64,000 nucleotides of DNA from Escherichia phage P479. Positions 6,414-56,607 of the stretch are shown in pieces (position 1 is the first letter of the stretch; the number at the start of each line of letters is the position of its first letter). A program made the translations under genes and the position numbers. The notes below the pieces were generated by a model. The model saw nothing but the letters and a program-made list of their open reading frames with translations, did not search any database and was not told the DNA's origin. Location of the stretch: sequence record MW269952.1. One strand, written 5' to 3'.

Positions 6414-6707
6414 ATGGACCTTATTCGAGGACTTTCATTAAGTCTAATAATCCTGGGCTGTTTAGGCCCAAATCTGTCCTCTGCAACAGAGGGGAAGTTT
6501 ACCCAATATGCAGATAGTGCGATGAAGATTTATTCGCAATTCAAAGAACCAAGCGTGCACCAATCCGAACAGTTCTGGGCGTTTATCAAGACTGAATGGA
6601 ACAACAAAAGCCAATGCGAAACTGAAATTACCTGCAAAAGCGATGGTAAAGCTGCGGCGAGAGAGTACGCTAAATTAATGAAGGTAAAATTGGAAGATGA
6701 AATTTGA
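6414..6707 (+). CDS. rI: Lysis-inhibition regulator membrane protein RI
   Basis: 97 aa; N-terminal signal-anchor; SEQFWAFIKT...C...AREYAKLMKVKLE resembles T4 RI C-terminal domain. Confidence 0.7.
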   Translation: MDLIRGLSLSLIILGCLGPNLSSATEGKFTQYADSAMKIYSQFKEPSVHQSEQFWAFIKTEWNNKSQCETEITCKSDGKAAAREYAKLMKVKLEDEI

Positions 6708-31512: not shown

Positions 31513-34227
31513 ATGCAAGAATTTTATTTAACTATCGAACAAATCGGTGACAACCTACACGAACGATATATTGACAAGAATGGTCATGAACGTGTTCGTG
31601 AAATCCCTTATGCTCCATGCTTGTTTATGCACGCCCGTGAAGACCAGGCTGCAAAGTATACAGACATCTATAATAAAGGTTGTGTGAAAAAAGAATTCGA
31701 TTCCATGCGTGATGCATCCCAGTGGATGAAGCGAATGAATGACATGGGTCTCGAAGCTATGGGTATGGATGACTTTAAACTCGCATACTTGTCCGACCGT
31801 TACCCACACGAAATCAAATATGATTCAAGTAAAATCCGTGTTGCTAACTTCGATATCGAGGTGACATCTCCTGACGGGTTCCCTGAGCCGTCTGAAGCAC
31901 GTCACCCTATTGATGCCCTGACGCACTATGATTCGGTAGACGATAAATTCTATGTCTTTGACCTTTTGGGCTCACCATACGCCACTGTGGAGCAATGGTC
32001 TATTGATATTGCTGCTAAGCTGCAGGAAGACGGTGGTGATGAAGTCCCTGAAGAAATCCTGGAAAAAATTGTTTATATGGCTTTCGATTCAGAAGAAGAA
32101 ATGCTCCAGCAGTATTTGGTATTCTGGAACGAGAAAACTCCGGTTATGTTAACTGGTTGGAACATTGAGAAGTTTGATATTCCATATATCTACAACCGCC
32201 TTAAAAATGTATTTGGTGAAGCTACAGCAAAACGTCTGAGCCCACATCGTCGTACAAAAGTTAAGGTCATTAACAACGGCTTTGGTGAAGAACAAGAAAT
32301 CATTCAGATTCTGGGTATCTCTGTTCTGGATTATCTGGACCTGTATAAAAAGTTCAGCTTCACAAACCAACCGTCTTATTCGTTGGATTATGTTGCGGAA
32401 TCTGAACTGGGTGTTGGTAAACTCCCGTATGATGGCCCGATTTCTAAACTGCGCGAATCAAATCACCAGCGGTATATTTCTTATAACATCATCGACGTTT
32501 ATCGTGTTGTGCAGATTGACCGTAAGCGGCAGTTTATTAACCTGAGTCAGTCAATGGGTTATTATGCAAAGATGCAGATTCAGTCTGTATTCAGCCCAAT
32601 CAAAACTTGGGATGCGATTATCTTTAACAGCCTGAAGACTCAAAACAAAGTCATTCCGGAAACCAAATCGCATGTTCGTCAATCGTTCCCTGGTGCATTT
32701 GTTAAGGAACCGATTCCAAACGCGTACAAATATGTAATGAGCTGTGACTTAACATCTCTGTATCCGAGCATCATCCGACAGATTAACATCAGTCCAGAAA
32801 CGATTGCCGGTTCATTTGCTCCAGCCCAGATGTATGAATACATCGCAGGAACTGCTGACCGTCCATCTGATACATTTAGTTGTGCTCCAAATGGTATGAT
32901 GTATTTTAAAGATGTTGCGGGTATTATTCCGACAGAAGTCACCAAGGTGTTTAATCAGCGTAAAGAACACAAAGGCTATATGCTTGCGGCTCAACGTAAT
33001 GGTGAACTGATTAAGGAAGCTCTGCGTAATCCAGGAACTGGTACAACCGAGCCTGAAGTTGATTATCGTTATGACTTTGATGATAATATGAAAACAACCT
33101 TGCATGGTCTGAATCAAACAGTTCTGAATGGTATGTTGTACAAAGCGCAGATGGAAGAAGTTGCAGGCATGACCGCACAGATTAACCGTAAACTACTTAT
33201 CAACAGTTGTTATGGTGCTCTGGGTAATATCTGGTTCCGTTACTTTGACCTGCGAAATGCGACCGCGATTACATCTTTCGGACAACTTGCATTGCAGTGG
33301 ATTGAGCGTAAAGTTAACGAATACTTCGATAGTGTTTGTGGGACAAGCGGCGAAACTTATGTATTCTATGGCGATACTGACTCCATTTATATCCAGTGCG
33401 ATAACCTGATTAAAAAGGTTGGTGGCGAATCTAAATTCCGTGATACAAACCACCTGGTTGACTTCATGGACAAGTTTGCGAAAGACCGTCTGGAACCGGC
33501 AATCGATAAAGCTTTCCGTGAGCTGGCTGAATACATGAACAACAAACAGCACCTTATGTTTATGGACCGTGAAGCGATTGCATGTCCTCCGCTAGGTTCT
33601 AAAGGTGTGGGTGGATTCTGGACGGCGAAGAAGCGTTATGCGCTGAACGTGTACGATATGGAAGGCACACGATATGCTGTTCCGAAACTGAAAATCATGG
33701 GTCTGGAAACTCAAAAGTCGAGTACTCCAAAGGCATGTCAGAAAGCTCTGAAAGAATGTATCCGCCGTATGCTGCAAGAAGGTGAAGAATCTCTGCAGAC
33801 ATACTTCAAGGAATTCAATAAGGAATTTAATGAGCTTAACTACATGACCATCGCTGGTGTATCATCGGTTAACAACATCCAGAAATATAATGAAGGTGGT
33901 TTCCCTGGATTTAAGTGTCCGGCTCATATCAAAGGTGTGCTTGCATATATGCGTGCAACTAAAGGCCTGAAGACTGTTCCACAAATCATGGAAGGGGAAA
34001 AGGTGTATGTACTTCCTCTTAAAGTTGGCAACCCGTTTGGTGAAACCGTGATTGCATGGCCATCAGGGATTGAACTCCCGATTGAAATTCGTGACCAAGT
34101 CCTGCAGTGGATGGACTACAACACACTGTTCCAGAAGACTTTTGTTAAGCCATTAACAGGTTTCTCTGAAGCCGCAAAGGTTGATTACGAAAAGAAAGCA
34201 ACTCTTTTTGACATGTTTGACTTTTAA
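31513..34227 (+). CDS. 43: DNA polymerase gp43 (family B, with 3'-5' exonuclease)
   Basis: 904 aa; exo motifs FDIEV and YNIIDV, polymerase motifs SLYPSII, KILINSCYG and YGDTDS; no intron. Confidence 0.95.
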   Translation: MQEFYLTIEQIGDNLHERYIDKNGHERVREIPYAPCLFMHAREDQAAKYTDIYNKGCVKKEFDSMRDASQWMKRMNDMGLEAMGMDDFKLAYLSDRYPHEIKYDSSKIRVANFDIEVTSPDGFPEPSEARHPIDALTHYDSVDDKFYVFDLLGSPYATVEQWSIDIAAKLQEDGGDEVPEEILEKIVYMAFDSEEEMLQQYLVFWNEKTPVMLTGWNIEKFDIPYIYNRLKNVFGEATAKRLSPHRRTKVKVINNGFGEEQEIIQILGISVLDYLDLYKKFSFTNQPSYSLDYVAESELGVGKLPYDGPISKLRESNHQRYISYNIIDVYRVVQIDRKRQFINLSQSMGYYAKMQIQSVFSPIKTWDAIIFNSLKTQNKVIPETKSHVRQSFPGAFVKEPIPNAYKYVMSCDLTSLYPSIIRQINISPETIAGSFAPAQMYEYIAGTADRPSDTFSCAPNGMMYFKDVAGIIPTEVTKVFNQRKEHKGYMLAAQRNGELIKEALRNPGTGTTEPEVDYRYDFDDNMKTTLHGLNQTVLNGMLYKAQMEEVAGMTAQINRKLLINSCYGALGNIWFRYFDLRNATAITSFGQLALQWIERKVNEYFDSVCGTSGETYVFYGDTDSIYIQCDNLIKKVGGESKFRDTNHLVDFMDKFAKDRLEPAIDKAFRELAEYMNNKQHLMFMDREAIACPPLGSKGVGGFWTAKKRYALNVYDMEGTRYAVPKLKIMGLETQKSSTPKACQKALKECIRRMLQEGEESLQTYFKEFNKEFNELNYMTIAGVSSVNNIQKYNEGGFPGFKCPAHIKGVLAYMRATKGLKTVPQIMEGEKVYVLPLKVGNPFGETVIAWPSGIELPIEIRDQVLQWMDYNTLFQKTFVKPLTGFSEAAKVDYEKKATLFDMFDF

Positions 34228-34296
34228 GTGTTTACAACGGCAATGGATTGCCGTATGATTACCGCATCAACTGATGAATAACTTAAGGATATTAAA

Positions 34297-34539
34297 ATGG
34301 AAACATTAATTGCGGGTACTGTTGTTCTTGGGGCTGGTTCTTTCTTCCTGGCTGCACTGACATATTTTCTGCCGTGGATTATCGCGCTGCTGCGTGGTAC
34401 CAAAAGTAATTGCGGAATCTTCTTTGTTAACCTCCTGTTAGGTTGGACAATGGTCGGATGGTTTATTGCATTTATCTGGGCACTCGTTGCTGAACGTAAA
34501 TCAAACGCACAAGTAATTATCATCAAGGAAGCAAAATGA
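34297..34539 (+). CDS. imm: Small membrane protein, Imm-like by position
   Basis: 80 aa; two transmembrane helices; directly after gene 43 as in T4. Confidence 0.4.
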   Translation: METLIAGTVVLGAGSFFLAALTYFLPWIIALLRGTKSNCGIFFVNLLLGWTMVGWFIAFIWALVAERKSNAQVIIIKEAK

Positions 34540-34680
34540 AGATAATTACAATTATTGTACTGATTGCATTTTTTAGTATGTCAATCTACTGGGCAATAAT
34601 GACTCCACATATGATTCCAACTTTAATTTTGGGTTGGGTATTTTTGGGGCTCCAAGCCCGCTATGAATGTTTTAATTAGG
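34537..34680 (+). CDS. Hypothetical small membrane protein
   Basis: 47 aa (MKIITIIVLIAFFSMSIYWAIMTP...), below ORF-track cutoff. Confidence 0.3.
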
Positions 34681-34687
34681 AAGCAAA

Positions 34688-35191
34688 ATGAAAAAGTTAG
34701 CTATCGCAGCTGTTATGCTGCTATCTGGTTGTGCTTACCAGGGCGATGTTGTTAATGCCAACGAGATTGGTAAAGCGCGAATTGCTGCAGACCGTCAGGT
34801 GCACAATGGTTCCTTTGATTTCAAAGGTGGTACTGGACTTATCTACAAACGCGACAACAATCAATGTGGAAACAACTGCGCGAAATATGCTCAACAAGAA
34901 ATTGAGTACAAACGCGAGCAAGCTGCGAAGCATGACGAAATCATTGCCAAGCTGGAAGCAGAAACCAAGCGACAAAATGACCTGGATACTGTTAACCAGA
35001 TTTCACAGGTCTGCATGTCATACATCAATATGCAGATAAACATCATGCGCGCAGAAGCTTATCAGGCAGCAGAGACGGGTTCTCCAAAAGCTAATGAGTA
35101 CCGCGATATGTATCAGCGTTCTGCTCAAAACCGTCTGAGCTATATTAATAAATGTGTAGCTAAAGAGAAAGCACGCCAAGGTATTAACTAA
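34688..35191 (+). CDS. Predicted lipoprotein
   Basis: 167 aa; signal peptide with lipobox LLSGC; occupies the slot where T4 has gene 42 and beta-gt. Confidence 0.5.
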   Translation: MKKLAIAAVMLLSGCAYQGDVVNANEIGKARIAADRQVHNGSFDFKGGTGLIYKRDNNQCGNNCAKYAQQEIEYKREQAAKHDEIIAKLEAETKRQNDLDTVNQISQVCMSYINMQINIMRAEAYQAAETGSPKANEYRDMYQRSAQNRLSYINKCVAKEKARQGIN

Positions 35192-35420
35192 ACAAACTGC
35201 GAGAAGAATATTATGATTGGTATGTTATTGATTAGCCTATGGTTGTTGTCTGCATTTGGTATTGGTTTTATGTACTGGTGGGACAAACGTCAGACCCGGA
35301 AGATTGTTGAACGTGCAATTAATCGTGGATTCAATCGTTAATTGCTCTGAAAATACAGTGATATAATTATCCTATCTTAAACCTGTGAGAAAAATATAAT
35401 GGTGCCTATGGAAAAAATGA

Positions 35421-36599
35421 ATGTCTATTGCAGATTTGAAATCCCGTTTGATTAAAGCTTCTACATCCAAAATGACCGCGACTCTTACCAAGTCCAAGTT
35501 TTTTAATGATAAAGATGTAGTTCGTACAAAAATCCCGATGCTGAACATTGCAATCAGCGGTGCACTAGATGGTGGTATGCAGTCAGGTTTGACTATTTTT
35601 GCTGGTCCGTCAAAACACTTTAAATCCAATATGGGTTTAACGATGGTCTCTGCATATATGAACAAATACCCCGATGCAATCTGTTTGTTCTATGATTCAG
35701 AATTTGGTATCACAGAAGCATATCTTCGTGCAATGAAAGTTGACCCGGAACGTGTTATCCACACGCCAATCCAGTCGGTTGAACAATTGAAAGTTGATAT
35801 GGTTAACCAGCTTGAAGCAATTGAGCGTGGTGAAAAAGTCATTATCTTTATTGACTCAATCGGTAACATGGCGTCGAAAAAAGAAACAGAAGATGCGATG
35901 AACGAAAAAGTTGTTGGCGATATGACTCGTGCTAAATCCCTGAAATCTCTGTTCCGTATTGTTACTCCATATTTTAGCATCAAGGATATTCCTTGTGTCG
36001 CGGTTAACCATACAATCGAGACGATTGAGATGTACAGTAAAACCGTTATGACCGGCGGTACAGGTGTTATGTATTCCGCGGACACCGTATTCATTATCGG
36101 TAAACGTCAGATTAAAGAAACTGGTAAAGAACTTGAAGGCTTCCAATTTGTTCTGAACGCCGAAAAATCCCGTATGGTCAAAGAGAAAAGTAAATTCTTC
36201 ATTGATGTAAAATTCGATGGGGGTATTGACCCGTATTCTGGCCTGCTTGATATGGCAATGGAAATCGGATTTGTGGTGAAACCAAAAGTTGGTTGGTATA
36301 ACCGTGAATATCTTGATGTTGAGACCGGTGAAATGGTCCGCGAAGAAAAATCATGGCGTGCAAAAGATACTAACTGCACCGAATTCTGGGGCCCGCTGTT
36401 CAAACACGAACCTTTCCGTGATGCAATCAAACGCCATTACCAACTGGGTGCAATCGATAGCAATGCTGTTGTTGATGCCGAAGTTGATGCGCTTATTGCT
36501 TCCAAGGTTGAAAAATACACTGCTCCTGAAGGTAAGACAAAACCGTCCGCTGCAGATATCGAAAACGATTTAGATATGATGGAAGACCTTGATGAATGA
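35421..36599 (+). CDS. uvsX: RecA-like recombinase UvsX
   Basis: 392 aa; DLKSRLIKASTSK..., Walker A GPSKHFKS, close match to T4 UvsX along its length. Confidence 0.95.
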   Translation: MSIADLKSRLIKASTSKMTATLTKSKFFNDKDVVRTKIPMLNIAISGALDGGMQSGLTIFAGPSKHFKSNMGLTMVSAYMNKYPDAICLFYDSEFGITEAYLRAMKVDPERVIHTPIQSVEQLKVDMVNQLEAIERGEKVIIFIDSIGNMASKKETEDAMNEKVVGDMTRAKSLKSLFRIVTPYFSIKDIPCVAVNHTIETIEMYSKTVMTGGTGVMYSADTVFIIGKRQIKETGKELEGFQFVLNAEKSRMVKEKSKFFIDVKFDGGIDPYSGLLDMAMEIGFVVKPKVGWYNREYLDVETGEMVREEKSWRAKDTNCTEFWGPLFKHEPFRDAIKRHYQLGAIDSNAVVDAEVDALIASKVEKYTAPEGKTKPSAADIENDLDMMEDLDE

Positions 36600-39666: not shown

Positions 39667-39726
39667 CAGTTTACATCAAAGGGATAATGCTGTATATTAT
39701 CCCTATCAACTACTGAGGAGATTGAA

Positions 39727-40020
39727 ATGAAAAAGTTATTAATCGCAGCAATTCTTACCGTAGCATCATGTGGTACAGCTCCAGTTACTGCTGGACTTGA
39801 TAAAGACCTTTGTGAGTGGTCTATGACCGCCGACCAGACTGATGTTGAACATCAGATTTATGCTGATATCATGAACATTACTAAACGTGACCGTCCAGAT
39901 ATGGTTAAAGAAGTATCTGACCAACTGGCTTCTGGTGACGTTATGCAGTATAACTATGTTCTGTATTGCGATGCTTCATTTGACAACAGCAAGATTGTTC
40001 AATGGGTTACAGGTGAATAA
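39727..40020 (+). CDS. Predicted lipoprotein
   Basis: 97 aa; signal peptide with lipobox TVASC; AGGAG Shine-Dalgarno. Confidence 0.5.
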   Translation: MKKLLIAAILTVASCGTAPVTAGLDKDLCEWSMTADQTDVEHQIYADIMNITKRDRPDMVKEVSDQLASGDVMQYNYVLYCDASFDNSKIVQWVTGE

Positions 40021-53475: not shown

Positions 53476-53652
53476 TGCCACTTTATGACTATAAATGCCA
53501 ATCCAATGACTGCGCGAAAGAATACGAAAAAATCAAGAAAATCTCTGAAAGAGATAATGATGTTTGCCCTGATTGCCATCGGCTGGCTGTTCGGTTAGTC
53601 TCGGCTCCTAAACATGTTAATGGTGGTTTTTACGACCTGCTGACTAAGTGAG
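53476..53652 (+). CDS. FmdB-type zinc-ribbon protein
   Basis: 58 aa, below ORF-track cutoff; MPLYDYKCQSNDC...CPDCH is the FmdB-family CxxC...CxxC ribbon. Confidence 0.45.
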
Positions 53653-53657
53653 AAATT

Positions 53658-53918
53658 ATGAAGTACATTAATCGTTCTATTGCAGCGCTGGTTCTGGCAG
53701 TTTCATTGGCTGGCTGTACTGATACAGATAATGCTATTCGTGTGTTAGATGCAAACGGCTATGAACAAATCCAAATCACCGGATATAACTGGTTCTCTTG
53801 CGGTAAAGATGATTTCCAACATACAGGCTTTACGGCCGTGGGTCCAACTGGTAAGAAAGTTGAAGGAACTGTTTGTTCTGGTTTGCTATTCAAGAACAGT
53901 ACCATCCGATTTGAATAA
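53658..53918 (+). CDS. Predicted lipoprotein
   Basis: 86 aa; signal peptide with lipobox SLAGC. Confidence 0.5.
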   Translation: MKYINRSIAALVLAVSLAGCTDTDNAIRVLDANGYEQIQITGYNWFSCGKDDFQHTGFTAVGPTGKKVEGTVCSGLLFKNSTIRFE

Positions 53919-53981: not shown

Positions 53982-54782
53982 ATGATGATTAATGAAGTAT
54001 TCGGGATAATAAAAAATAAATTTCCTGATTATATTCCACCATCGAGTGGAAATAGTGGGATTTATATAATTTATAATTTAATATCTCAAAAATATTATAT
54101 AGGAAGTTCAAATGATTTTCATCGTAGAATTGCCACGCATTTTCGGAATTTATCCAAAGGTGTTGGCATAAACAGCCATTTACAGTTTGCATATGACAAA
54201 TACGGTAAAGAATCATTTGTATGCGAACTAATAGAAAATATAGAAGTTTATAATAAAAAATATTTCTTGAAAAGAGAAAGTTTCTGGATAACTGAATTAA
54301 ATTCTATCAAAAACGGTTATAATATAACGTTGGCGGATTTTGGTGGTGACACAATGTCCAATCATCCAAGAAAAGCGGAAATTAATTTACTTAAAGGCGA
54401 AGCCGTTAAAAAACGGAATAAACTGTTAGATAAAACCGAATATAATAGAATATATGGAACTGGTGTTAAAAGAAAGCCATACCCCGATGATTTTGGTTAT
54501 AATGTCTCCCTGCGTAAAGCAGGCGAAAATCATCATTTCTTTGGCAAACATCTTTCTCTTGAACACAAAGATAAATTATCAAAATTATTCTCTGGTGGTA
54601 AAAATCCCGAGGCTAAAACGTACTCTATAAATGGGGTCATATTCACAACCCGAAAAGAAGCCGCCGAAGTTCTTGGTATTAGTTATCCTACATTACGAAA
54701 ACGCTGCAAATCCGATGATGTAAAATGGTCCAGTTGGAAATGTTTAGGTTATACTAAAAATTTAGAGGTCAAAAATGATTAA
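53982..54782 (+). CDS. GIY-YIG homing endonuclease (Seg-like)
   Basis: 266 aa; GIYIIYN...YYIGSS GIY-YIG motif, catalytic R/E/N spacing like I-TevI; AT-rich coding; immediately upstream of gene 39. Confidence 0.75.
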   Translation: MMINEVFGIIKNKFPDYIPPSSGNSGIYIIYNLISQKYYIGSSNDFHRRIATHFRNLSKGVGINSHLQFAYDKYGKESFVCELIENIEVYNKKYFLKRESFWITELNSIKNGYNITLADFGGDTMSNHPRKAEINLLKGEAVKKRNKLLDKTEYNRIYGTGVKRKPYPDDFGYNVSLRKAGENHHFFGKHLSLEHKDKLSKLFSGGKNPEAKTYSINGVIFTTRKEAAEVLGISYPTLRKRCKSDDVKWSSWKCLGYTKNLEVKND

Positions 54783-56607
54783 GAATGAAATTCAAATCCT
54801 TTCTGATGTAGCTCACGTAAAAGCTCGCCCATCAATGTACATCGGTAGTGTTACCAATGAAGACAAAGAAATTTTTCTGTTTGGTGAATATAAAAAGGTT
54901 CAATACGTTCCAGGTTTAATTAAATTAATCGAAGAAATTGCAAATAACTCTATTGATGAAGCTATTCGCACCAATTTTAAATTTGCAAACAAAATTTCAT
55001 TGAATATTGATATCAAAACAAACGAAGTGACCGTTGAAGATAATGGTCGAGGCATTCCACAGGCGATTGTTGTAACCCCAGAAGGCGAAGAAATTCCTGG
55101 GCCGGTCGCTGCATGGACCAAGGTTCGTTCGGGTGGAAACTTTAGTGATGATGCAAATCGTGTTACCACTGGGATGAACGGAGTGGGGTCCAGTCTTACC
55201 AACATTTTTTCAATATTGTTCACAGGCACCACATCAGATGGGAAAAATGAATTAACCGTTAATTGTTCAAATGGACTTGATAATATTTCATGGAAATCAA
55301 AACCATCAAAGTTGCAAGGAACTAAAGTTAAATTTATTCCGGATTTTTCGAATTTTGAAACGTCTGGTTTTGACGAAACATATGTCCAAATTATGCTTGA
55401 CCAAATCCAGACTCTTGCAGTCATTTATCCGGATATCGAATTCAAGTTCAATGGTAAAAAAGTGCAAGGTCACTTTAAAAAATATGCCAAGCAATACGAT
55501 GATGAAATCATTATTCAGGAACAAGATAATTGCTCAATTGCAATTGGTCGGTCACCCGATGGTTTCCGTCATGTGACTTATGTTAACGGAATCCATACAA
55601 AAAATGGTGGTCACCATATTGAATGTGTTATGGATGAAATGTGTGATGTGTTAATCCCGGCGATTAAACGCAAGTATAAAATTGAAGTAACCAAAGCACG
55701 CGTTAAAGAATGTATTACATTGTTGATGTTTATTCGCAATATGAAGAACATGCGATTTGATTCCCAGACCAAGGAGCGATTGACTTCTCCGGCTGGCGAA
55801 ATCAAATCACATATCCAGGTTGATGGCAAAAAGTTAGCTGGTTCGTTGTTAAAATCAGAAGCTGTTCTGATGCCTATTATTGAAGCTGCATTAGCCCGTA
55901 AATTGGCTGCAGAGAAAGCAGCAGAGACTAAGGCAAATAAGAAAGCTTCAAAGGCCAAGGTACAAAAGCATATCAAGGCCAACGAATGGGGCAATGATAA
56001 GCTGGAAACGACTCTATTCCTGACCGAAGGGGATTCTGCAACTGGTCCATTTATCAAGGTTCGCGACCGTGAATTGCAAGGTGCTTATCCATTACGTGGT
56101 AAGTTTAAAAACACATGGGGTTTGAAAGCGGTTGACGTTATGAAGAACGCTGAAGCCTTTGATGTGTGTGCAATTACTGGATTAACGATTGGACAACCAG
56201 CCGAGAATATGAATTACCGAAACATTGCTATCATGACAGATGCGGATGTGGATGGCGTCGGTAGTATCTATCCATCGTTATTGGCGTTTTTCAGTAACTG
56301 GCCAGAGCTGTTCCATGAAGGGCGAATTCGCTTTGTGAAAACTCCTGTTATTATTGCACAGCTCAAAGATAAACAAGAATGGTTCTATTCTCTTCCTGAC
56401 TATGAAGAAGCTAAGGATAAACTTCCGAAGCACACCATCCGATATATCAAGGGGCTTGGTTCTCTGGAAGATTCCGAGTACAAACGCGTATTGCTCGAAC
56501 CAGTATTCGAAGTTGTTCAATTACCTGACAACTGGAAAGAACTGTTTGAAATGTTATTCGGTAAAGATTCCCAGCAGCGTAAAGACTGGATGAATGCGAC
56601 GCTATAA
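54775..56607 (+). CDS. 39: DNA topoisomerase II large subunit gp39 (ATPase plus TOPRIM in one frame)
   Basis: 610 aa; GHKL ATPase N-terminus, TOPRIM LTEGDSA and IMTDADVDG; single continuous frame with no gene-60-style split. Confidence 0.9.
   Translation: MIKNEIQILSDVAHVKARPSMYIGSVTNEDKEIFLFGEYKKVQYVPGLIKLIEEIANNSIDEAIRTNFKFANKISLNIDIKTNEVTVEDNGRGIPQAIVVTPEGEEIPGPVAAWTKVRSGGNFSDDANRVTTGMNGVGSSLTNIFSILFTGTTSDGKNELTVNCSNGLDNISWKSKPSKLQGTKVKFIPDFSNFETSGFDETYVQIMLDQIQTLAVIYPDIEFKFNGKKVQGHFKKYAKQYDDEIIIQEQDNCSIAIGRSPDGFRHVTYVNGIHTKNGGHHIECVMDEMCDVLIPAIKRKYKIEVTKARVKECITLLMFIRNMKNMRFDSQTKERLTSPAGEIKSHIQVDGKKLAGSLLKSEAVLMPIIEAALARKLAAEKAAETKANKKASKAKVQKHIKANEWGNDKLETTLFLTEGDSATGPFIKVRDRELQGAYPLRGKFKNTWGLKAVDVMKNAEAFDVCAITGLTIGQPAENMNYRNIAIMTDADVDGVGSIYPSLLAFFSNWPELFHEGRIRFVKTPVIIAQLKDKQEWFYSLPDYEEAKDKLPKHTIRYIKGLGSLEDSEYKRVLLEPVFEVVQLPDNWKELFEMLFGKDSQQRKDWMNATL

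Follow-up and report, generated by a model that had tools for sequence, protein, structure and literature searches.

An imm.1-type predicted lipoprotein beside imm in a Gaprivervirus phage, a candidate factor in T-even superinfection exclusion

Introduction

The superinfection exclusion of phage T4 is a classic system. Its Imm protein acts at the inner membrane, and we know of no molecular-level account of how Imm blocks the entry of DNA. T4 Spackle, the product of sp, binds the lysozyme domain of the tail protein gp5 and inhibits it (PMC7677548, PMC7650644). Between gene 43 and imm, T4 also encodes Imm.1, a protein of 125 residues. Here we describe the corresponding locus of Escherichia phage P479 (sequence record MW269952.1), a Gaprivervirus among the VR7/SP18-like T-even phages of E. 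coli. Within the whole stretch that was analysed, 64,000 nucleotides long and hereafter called the window, the open reading frame (ORF) at 34688-35191 lies close to imm and encodes a 167-residue protein that we predict to be an outer-membrane lipoprotein of the imm.1 type.

A first-pass annotation of this DNA had grouped this ORF with two others, at 39727-40020 and 53658-53918, as three lipoprotein genes with a possible role in exclusion. It had named T5 Llp and Cor as analogues, and had suggested that the first ORF forms a combined exclusion module with imm. Llp and Cor (of phi80, N15 and others), which block FhuA, do resemble the 167-residue protein in being phage-encoded, predicted outer-membrane lipoproteins with a short signal peptide and a proposed role at the envelope, and PMC9586334 presents Llp as a known precedent for receptor masking. 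The explanation that in our view best covers the evidence as a whole is that an imm.1-type lipoprotein, made early in infection, may serve as a T-even exclusion factor; we put it forward tentatively, with somewhat more doubt than confidence.

Results and Discussion

A predicted lipoprotein gene

We took a lipoprotein signature to consist of positive charge at the N-terminus, a hydrophobic segment 7-22 residues long and a lipobox of the form [LVI][ASTVI][GAS]C with its cysteine at about residue 15-35. The ORFs at 34688-35191, 39727-40020 and 53658-53918 all combine an N-terminus containing K or R with a short hydrophobic stretch and a strict lipobox (LSGC with Cys15, VASC with Cys15 and LAGC with Cys20, respectively). 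Their signal peptides, MKKLAIAAVMLLSGC in the 167-residue protein, MKKLLIAAILTVASC in the second product (Spackle) and MKYINRSIAALVLAVSLAGC in the third (gp39.1), pass both a PROSITE-type rule and the strict box. The earlier report of three lipobox-bearing ORFs was thus exact in its positions, on the + strand throughout. Because each of the three matches a phage protein family from end to end (phrog_1754, PF25676/phrog_1586 and phrog_902), they are real genes.

As a number, three lipobox genes in a 64-kb window is unremarkable. The loose PROSITE-type rule is passed by nine of the 1,918 start/ORF combinations of at least 35 residues in the window, and by our reading of the ORF map five of these nine lie in alternative frames or antisense. 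Another of the nine is the homologue of the lysis-inhibition protein RI (6414-6707, phrog_1246), which starts MDLIRGLSLSLIILGC and fails the strict box; T4 RI carries a signal-anchor-release domain, and the lipobox of RI is likely a false positive. What makes the motif credible is therefore not the count of hits but the conservation of its cysteine in homologues. Among relatives of the 167-residue protein, 21 of 22 have the lipobox; for gp39.1 the count is 86 of 95 (five of the other nine still carry the cysteine), and for Spackle it is 23 of 23. Pfam LPAM_1 gave only sub-threshold matches in a Pfam scan of the window proteins and the family members. Retention of a lipoprotein in the inner membrane of E. 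coli requires Asp at position +2, by the Lol-avoidance rule. Asp occupies this position in none of the scored lipoboxes of the three families, and any member that is lipidated would therefore be expected in the outer membrane.

The most sceptical reading of ORF 34688-35191 is that its lipobox arose by chance, in an ordinary signal peptide or in an ORF that is not expressed. That the loose rule catches RI, and that Spackle has a lipobox and was nevertheless recovered as a product of signal peptidase I (SPase I), lend this some substance. However, the cysteine is kept among relatives down to about 25% identity while its flanks vary, the ratio of nonsynonymous to synonymous divergence (dN/dS) is 0.05-0.21, no AxA-type SPase I site lies between the cysteine and the conserved mature region, and a ribosome-binding site and operon geometry are present. 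We consider chance very improbable here, and regard ORF 34688-35191 as very likely a real lipoprotein gene.

Relationship to T4 Imm.1

Both the 167-residue protein (E 6.6e-47, residues 1-161 against profile positions 2-147) and T4 Imm.1 (E 6.1e-43, residues 1-124 against positions 2-146) match phrog_1754. The former starts MKKLAIAAVMLLSGC-AYQGDVVNANEIGK and the latter MKIAILVIALGLAGC-VAQGPVVNQSDVGK. In each, a lipobox ending in GC, with its cysteine at residue 15, is followed by QG(D/P)VVNxx(D/E)(V/I)GK; in the window protein this post-cysteine motif reads AYQGDVVNxxEIGK, and position +2 is occupied by A, V, Q or H across its family. A C-terminal cysteine pair is conserved in both proteins, and both genes lie in the neighbourhood of gene 43 and imm. 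When the Imm.1 proteins of T4 and Mosigvirus were compared with the 167-residue family by hhalign, the probability was 96.7-96.8% (E 2-3e-10), with the similarity confined to the signal peptide and about 16-36 mature residues (the first 51 columns for T4 Imm.1). The sole invariant columns of a joint alignment with Imm.1 are L12, G14 and C15 of the lipobox, together with C109 and C156.

The differences are also clear. The window protein is 42 residues longer than T4 Imm.1, and its GTGLxY...NQCGxNC head and longer predicted helix also set it apart. The gene order is reversed relative to T4, with imm first and a 47-residue ORF between imm and the lipoprotein gene. The N-terminal module and the locus are common to the two proteins, and a relationship between their C-terminal parts is probable. 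On its sequence, the 167-residue protein is a divergent member or a sister group of the imm.1 family, which is itself unstudied; membership in that family is, in our judgement, likely.

A tblastn search placed the subfamily of the 167-residue protein in 121 phage records, and those inspected are T4-like phages of Enterobacterales. An exhaustive hidden Markov model (HMM) search of 1.84 billion representative proteins returned 17 clusters, none of them of T4 Imm.1 length, and a word-indexed protein search returned close relatives only. Scans of the protein against Pfam and NCBIfam gave only matches that were sub-threshold or limited to the signal peptide, and PADLOC gave nothing. The GC content of the gene and the GC content of its third codon positions (GC3) are ordinary, and an origin in foreign DNA, considered on the basis of base composition, was rejected for that reason.

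Cysteines and predicted fold

Conserved in the alignment of the 167-residue family are the lipobox, the post-cysteine motif, the head motif F..GTGLxY.R..NQCGxNC..YA, and C109 and C156. C60 and C64 are replaced jointly in P0021 and at three further loci (L023, L024 and L027). Their joint loss suggests a pairing between the two, in which case C109 would be the partner of C156. Two conserved cysteine pairs, and with them two putative disulfides, would fit the oxidising periplasm. An AlphaFold2 model (pLDDT 83, from an alignment of n=17 sequences) predicts a disordered tether (residues 16-23), a helix (24-38), a beta-hairpin (41-55), a long helix (61-129) and a returning helical hairpin (135-163).

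A predicted helix of about 70 residues on a lipid anchor invites a mechanical interpretation, in which the protein would stabilise the envelope as an Lpp-like strut, or would time lysis as a partner in lysis inhibition or of a spanin. The length of the helix is in the range of Braun's lipoprotein, the periplasmic cysteine pairs are conserved, and the RI gene and sp (T4 mutants lyse rapidly) belong to the same early gene set. We nevertheless think a role of this kind quite unlikely: the protein has no C-terminal membrane segment and no conserved C-terminal lysine, the length and sequence of the stalk region differ between family members, and the relative EcS1 has its annotated spanin pair at another place (ORF243 and ORF244). 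That the 167-residue protein is itself a spanin was rejected, as it has no C-terminal hydrophobic segment and its neighbours are imm, the 47-residue ORF and uvsX.

A tight unit with imm

The product of the gene at 34297-34539 is a genuine Imm, as the first-pass annotation had supposed: it matches PF14373 (E 7.5e-18; 64.6 bits against a cut-off of 27.9) and phrog_1039 (E 2.5e-30), has two hydrophobic segments, and is 50-52% identical to Tequatrovirus Imm proteins by tblastn. As a member of the T4 Imm family it is an inner-membrane protein, in contrast to the lipoprotein, whose gene is co-oriented with it. The two genes are not directly adjacent, as had been thought, since they are separated by a 47-residue membrane ORF (34536-34679). 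An identical product encoded on a metagenome contig is assigned to PF26865 (Phage_T4_Y02C), the VR7 equivalent is annotated 42.1, and a homologue lies near the lipoprotein gene in EcS1. The start of this ORF overlaps the imm stop in the sequence ATGA. Its own stop is followed, after 8 nt, by the lipoprotein gene, which has an AGGA ribosome-binding site. The lipoprotein gene is the last of this tight imm–47-residue ORF–lipoprotein unit, which stands behind a candidate early-type promoter.

The motif GTTTAC-N17-19-TATNNT, which matches the T4 early-promoter consensus, occurs six times in the window (at 876, 13645, 15994, 34230, 39669 and 62547), every time on the + strand, against 0.67 occurrences expected from shuffled sequence. 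The site at 34230 was also found in a generic sigma-70 scan, with 10/12 matches. An inverted repeat (ACGGCAA...TTGCCGT) lies in the spacer of this site. The same motif precedes both imm and sp, and on the strength of the consensus match these candidate early-type promoters may be active. The lipoprotein gene is probably co-transcribed with imm, to judge by the spacing of the genes, and the gene context favours a link between the two.

Synteny with imm

Our comparison of gene order is based on one to a few genomes per genus, and the survey of neighbourhoods among close alignments covered eight loci. At this scope, Tequatrovirus, Mosigvirus, Gaprivervirus and Dhakavirus, four genera in all, have a lipoprotein gene of the imm.1 type next to imm; it lies within about 400 bp of imm in T4, in Mosigvirus ST0, in JS98 and at eight Gaprivervirus loci. 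Three arrangements are seen. T4 has the order 43, imm.1, imm. All Gaprivervirus loci examined and Dhakavirus (JS98) have the order 43, imm, a small ORF or unannotated gap, and the lipoprotein gene. In Mosigvirus ST0 (L019, 1495-2530) the order is dmd, one ORF, imm.1-like, imm, sp, so that the imm.1-like gene, imm and sp are contiguous, away from gene 43. In IME523 and PEi20 (Kanagawavirus), CBH8 (Winklervirus), EcS1 (Kagamiyamavirus) and PM2 (Mosugukvirus), the lipoprotein gene directly follows gene 43.

These arrangements could also mean that the gene is an accessory one outside phage-phage exclusion, giving protection from a colicin, a type VI effector or an envelope defence of the host, or interfering with a periplasmic process of the host, and that it sits behind gene 43 because this position tolerates insertions. 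The post-gene-43 locus does vary by genus, holding imm.1 and imm, gene 42 and beta-gt, arabinose-pathway genes, or leading to uvsX directly, and in several genera the lipoprotein occurs without imm. There is also a match of residues 4-35 to an NCBIfam type VI immunity lipoprotein (E 0.0045), although it is below the family cut-off and covers little beyond the signal peptide. PADLOC found nothing, and chance insertion is a poor explanation for the imm.1-imm pair at another genomic place, next to sp, in Mosigvirus. We rate an accessory function of this sort as rather unlikely.

Exchange of old alleles

Relative to the window, Gaprivervirus genomes represented by loci L008, L009 and L010 have gp43, UvsX and gp41 that are 98-99% identical, with synonymous divergence (dS) of about 0.2. 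The lipoprotein in the same genomes is 75-81% identical, with dS of 0.8-2.1 and dN/dS of 0.07-0.21. The island of divergence spans 34297-35191, with imm 67% and the 47-residue ORF 53% identical. The figure for imm applies to two of the genomes; in the third, imm is 96% and the lipoprotein 75% identical. The breakpoints fall between genes, and old alleles of each gene have therefore been exchanged independently. A pattern of this type is one that we associate with genes for interaction with hosts or with other phages.

Allele islands in near-identical genomes, together with a gene in an early-type operon and a predicted outer-membrane lipoprotein with a very short signal peptide, are what one might also expect of a receptor-masking protein. 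Like Llp or Cor, such a protein would bind an outer-membrane receptor from the periplasmic side, block adsorption or triggering by later phages, and protect progeny from cell debris. The analogy weakens on comparison. Similarity to the Cor family (phrog_1119) has an E-value of 0.022 and covers residues 1-17 only, which is the signal peptide. A sequence-profile search of the PDB gave no match to Llp or to any lipoprotein at E up to 10, and Foldseek gave no such match either. The 167-residue protein is much larger than Llp and Cor, is mostly helical in the model and has no sequence similarity to them past the signal peptide; Llp is compact, which differs from the predicted long helix. Furthermore, 502 records carry T4-type Imm.1 at 95% identity or more, and Tequatrovirus phages do not all use the same receptor; this speaks against a receptor-specific partner. 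The comparison with Llp and Cor made in the first-pass annotation is thus supported by neither sequence nor fold, and we consider receptor masking improbable.

A possible role in exclusion

Returning to exclusion at the envelope, we propose the following. The 167-residue protein would be exported by Sec, lipidated by Lgt and cleaved by LspA. With Ala rather than Asp at position +2, the Lol system would place it in the inner leaflet of the outer membrane, with its helical part reaching into the periplasm. There, in the early phase of infection, it would serve at the cell envelope as one of the T-even superinfection-exclusion proteins, and would hinder the penetration of a second phage's tail tip or the transit of its DNA from the outer-membrane side. 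It would work alongside Imm and not through Imm, with Spackle blocking the tail lysozyme and Imm acting at the inner membrane. Taken by itself, a role of the lipoprotein in exclusion is possible, though in our estimate rather doubtful. A further hypothesis, that the imm.1-type lipoprotein, Imm and Spackle make up a three-layer envelope barrier of which the Mosigvirus imm.1-imm-sp cluster is the compact form, is speculative and we think it unlikely.

Several observations weigh against this proposal. The first concern the family and its fold. With the signal peptide and tether removed, the hhalign comparison with Imm.1 gives E 0.17, which is non-significant with such small profiles. Pfam DUF5481 matches T4 Imm.1 at E 5e-72 but matches neither the window protein (E up to 1) nor the 17 family members (E up to 0.1). 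The literature searched on imm.1 and DUF5481 gave no function and no functional data for this family. The predicted fold is based on an alignment of 17 sequences, and it has no structural relative of known function: Foldseek gave no PDB match at E<1, and in BFVD it returned the family's own members.

Others concern the link with imm. No imm lies within 2.5-4 kb of the lipoprotein gene in IME523, PEi20, CBH8, EcS1, PM2 or five IMG/VR contigs. In the complete EcS1 genome, which does have homologues of Spackle, gp39.1 and the 47-residue ORF, no Imm was found by tblastn, by phmmer, with an HMM of six Imm sequences or in a Pfam scan of membrane ORFs with two hydrophobic segments. Across phage records, imm is present in 1,472, against 121 with the subfamily of the 167-residue protein and 657 with T4-type Imm.1. 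Since other genera have no imm nearby and EcS1 has none that is detectable, the link between the lipoprotein and imm is frequent and not obligatory. By the allele comparison, imm and the lipoprotein also reassort independently. Finally, Lu and Henning are said to have found in 1989 that plasmid-borne T4 imm alone excludes T4; if that suffices, Imm would need no partner.

The suggestion of a combined module with imm therefore survives in part. The tight early-type unit and the position beside imm in four genera speak for it, whereas the occurrence of the lipoprotein without imm in other genera and the reassortment of alleles do not.

Spackle and its invariant Ser-Cys

The second lipobox-bearing ORF, 39727-40020, matches PF25676 over positions 1-96 of 96 (E 1.4e-43) and phrog_1586 (E 3.3e-43), and its product is 66% identical to T4 Sp, whose sequence was confirmed from the T4 record. 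By these matches, it is Spackle, the inhibitor of the gp5 lysozyme and an established superinfection-exclusion protein. For this member of the three, the exclusion role that had been suggested is well founded. It is unrelated in sequence to the 167-residue lipoprotein.

That Spackle is a lipoprotein is less straightforward. N-terminal sequencing of T4 Spackle shows the loss of 22 residues and the protein is released as a soluble periplasmic form, as observed with overexpressed protein in a fraction released by freeze-thaw. Since the T4 orthologue loses 22 residues and is soluble, the lipobox is probably not the main processing site under those conditions. The length of the lost segment points to processing by SPase I of at least the released fraction. 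Thus, of the claim of three lipoproteins, the motif and the conserved cysteine stand for all, but for Spackle the published protein is a soluble one cleaved after residue 22.

However, across 19 aligned Spackle sequences, with identities as low as 48%, S14, C15, P19 and A22 are invariant, whereas the signal peptide is otherwise variable. In the mature protein, T4 Spackle has a disulfide between Cys29 and Cys81, of which C29 is invariant and C81 nearly invariant in the aligned family. The invariant, lipobox-like Ser-Cys is not addressed in PMC7677548 or PMC7650644. A lipidated form would be membrane-bound and N-terminally blocked, and would therefore have been missed by the published release experiment. 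A speculative possibility, linked to the three-layer barrier, is that infected cells process Spackle in both ways and hold a lipid-anchored fraction of it; the invariant Ser-Cys would then be accounted for.

gp39.1

The third ORF, 53658-53918, matches phrog_902 (E 5e-36) and is a full-length form of T4 gene 39.1, 74-77% identical to the Tequatrovirus versions. A tblastn search recovered gp39.1 from 1,066 phage records, some of them from phages that infect Klebsiella, Serratia, Burkholderia, Sinorhizobium or Agrobacterium. A scan of 185,579 bacterial genomes gave a single contig, from a metagenome-assembled genome, and the protein is essentially confined to phages. Of the aligned homologues, at least 90% have the lipobox cysteine. 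C48 and C73 do not vary, and the 66 mature residues are strongly conserved. An AlphaFold2 model (pLDDT 74) predicts a helix and a four-stranded sheet.

In the T4 reference sequence (L003, 5398-5720, - strand), the codon for the lipobox cysteine is AGT (Ser) in place of TGT, and an extra T shifts the frame. Through the cysteine-to-serine change and the one-base insertion, the T4 reference gene has lost its lipoprotein signal, which is why T4 39.1 is annotated from an internal ATG as a 65-residue protein without a signal peptide. Phage T2 (L011), like the window (compared over 53640-53918), encodes the full 86 residues.

The literature searched on gp39.1 yielded nothing relevant. Strong conservation across phages of unrelated hosts argues against a receptor-specific role in exclusion; it suggests that gp39.1 may act on a conserved periplasmic target.

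Genomic context

The region around 34688-35191 shares 99.4% identity with Escherichia phage DK-13 and 92-98% with VR7, VR20, VR26, SP18 and others. The + strand follows the early-gene order of T4: 46, 45, 44, 62, regA, 43 (31513-34227) and imm; then, beyond two small ORFs and the lipoprotein gene, uvsX (starting at 35421), 40, 41, dmd, sp and 61; and further along 39.2, 39.1, an endonuclease gene, 39, rIIA and rIIB. The features discussed here are collected in Table 1.

Table 1. Genes and candidate promoters of the imm–lipoprotein locus and of the other lipobox-bearing ORFs in the window
Feature	Coordinates	Strand	Characteristics
Candidate T4 early-type promoter	34230..34259	+	GTTTACA, 17 nt, TATGAT; between gene 43 stop and imm; consensus match
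imm, superinfection immunity inner-membrane protein, 80 residues	34297..34539	+	PF14373, phrog_1039; two hydrophobic segments
47-residue hydrophobic ORF (T4 Y02C / '42.1'-like)	34536..34679	+	phrog_3610, E 7.6e-27; start overlaps imm stop (ATGA)
Predicted outer-membrane lipoprotein, 167 residues	34688..35191	+	PHROG 1754; signal peptide residues 1-14; LSGC, Cys15 (codon 34730-34732)
Variable 42-residue ORF	35213..35341	+	One hydrophobic segment, residues 1-23; between lipoprotein gene and uvsX
Candidate T4 early-type promoter	39669..39698	+	GTTTACA, 17 nt, TATATT; upstream of sp; consensus match
sp (gene 61.3), Spackle	39727..40020	+	PF25676, phrog_1586; VASC (Cys15) in signal peptide; SPase I-type site VTA|G, residues 22/23
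gp39.1 homologue, predicted lipoprotein, 86 residues	53658..53918	+	phrog_902; LAGC, Cys20; between FmdB-like gene 39.2 and the GIY-YIG endonuclease gene preceding gene 39

The 42-residue ORF has no family match in Pfam or PHROG searches. Many relatives with 95-98% identity lack about 12% of the query, and on metagenome contigs this ORF is absent or replaced. As it is present in some close relatives and absent in others, it is probably outside the conserved unit.

The interval from gene 43/imm to uvsX is genus-dependent. In T4 it holds gene 42, beta-gt and segA, and in JS98, EcS1, PEi20, CBH8 and PM2 it holds a cluster of the arabinose-5-phosphate-isomerase type. In the window, 34540-35420 contains neither set and leads straight into uvsX.

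Downstream, a GIY-YIG homing-endonuclease gene (53982-54782, with GIY-YIG, NUMOD3 and I-TevI DNA-binding domains) lies between 39.1 and gene 39. Gene 39 (54775-56607) encodes a 610-residue protein with a C-terminal TOPRIM-associated domain and appears unsplit, in contrast to the 39/60 pair of T4.

Implications

Should the 167-residue protein have no role in exclusion, the present findings amount to the ordinary annotation of three small envelope proteins. The genes of the imm.1 type, however, encode conserved lipoproteins, are kept beside imm in several genera and beside both imm and Spackle in Mosigvirus, and swap alleles between near-identical genomes. The combination of lipoprotein coding, synteny and allele swapping therefore provides a concrete hypothesis for a further participant in T-even superinfection exclusion. 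The invariant lipobox of Spackle and the widespread gp39.1 offer additional leads on how T-even phages may alter the envelope of their host.

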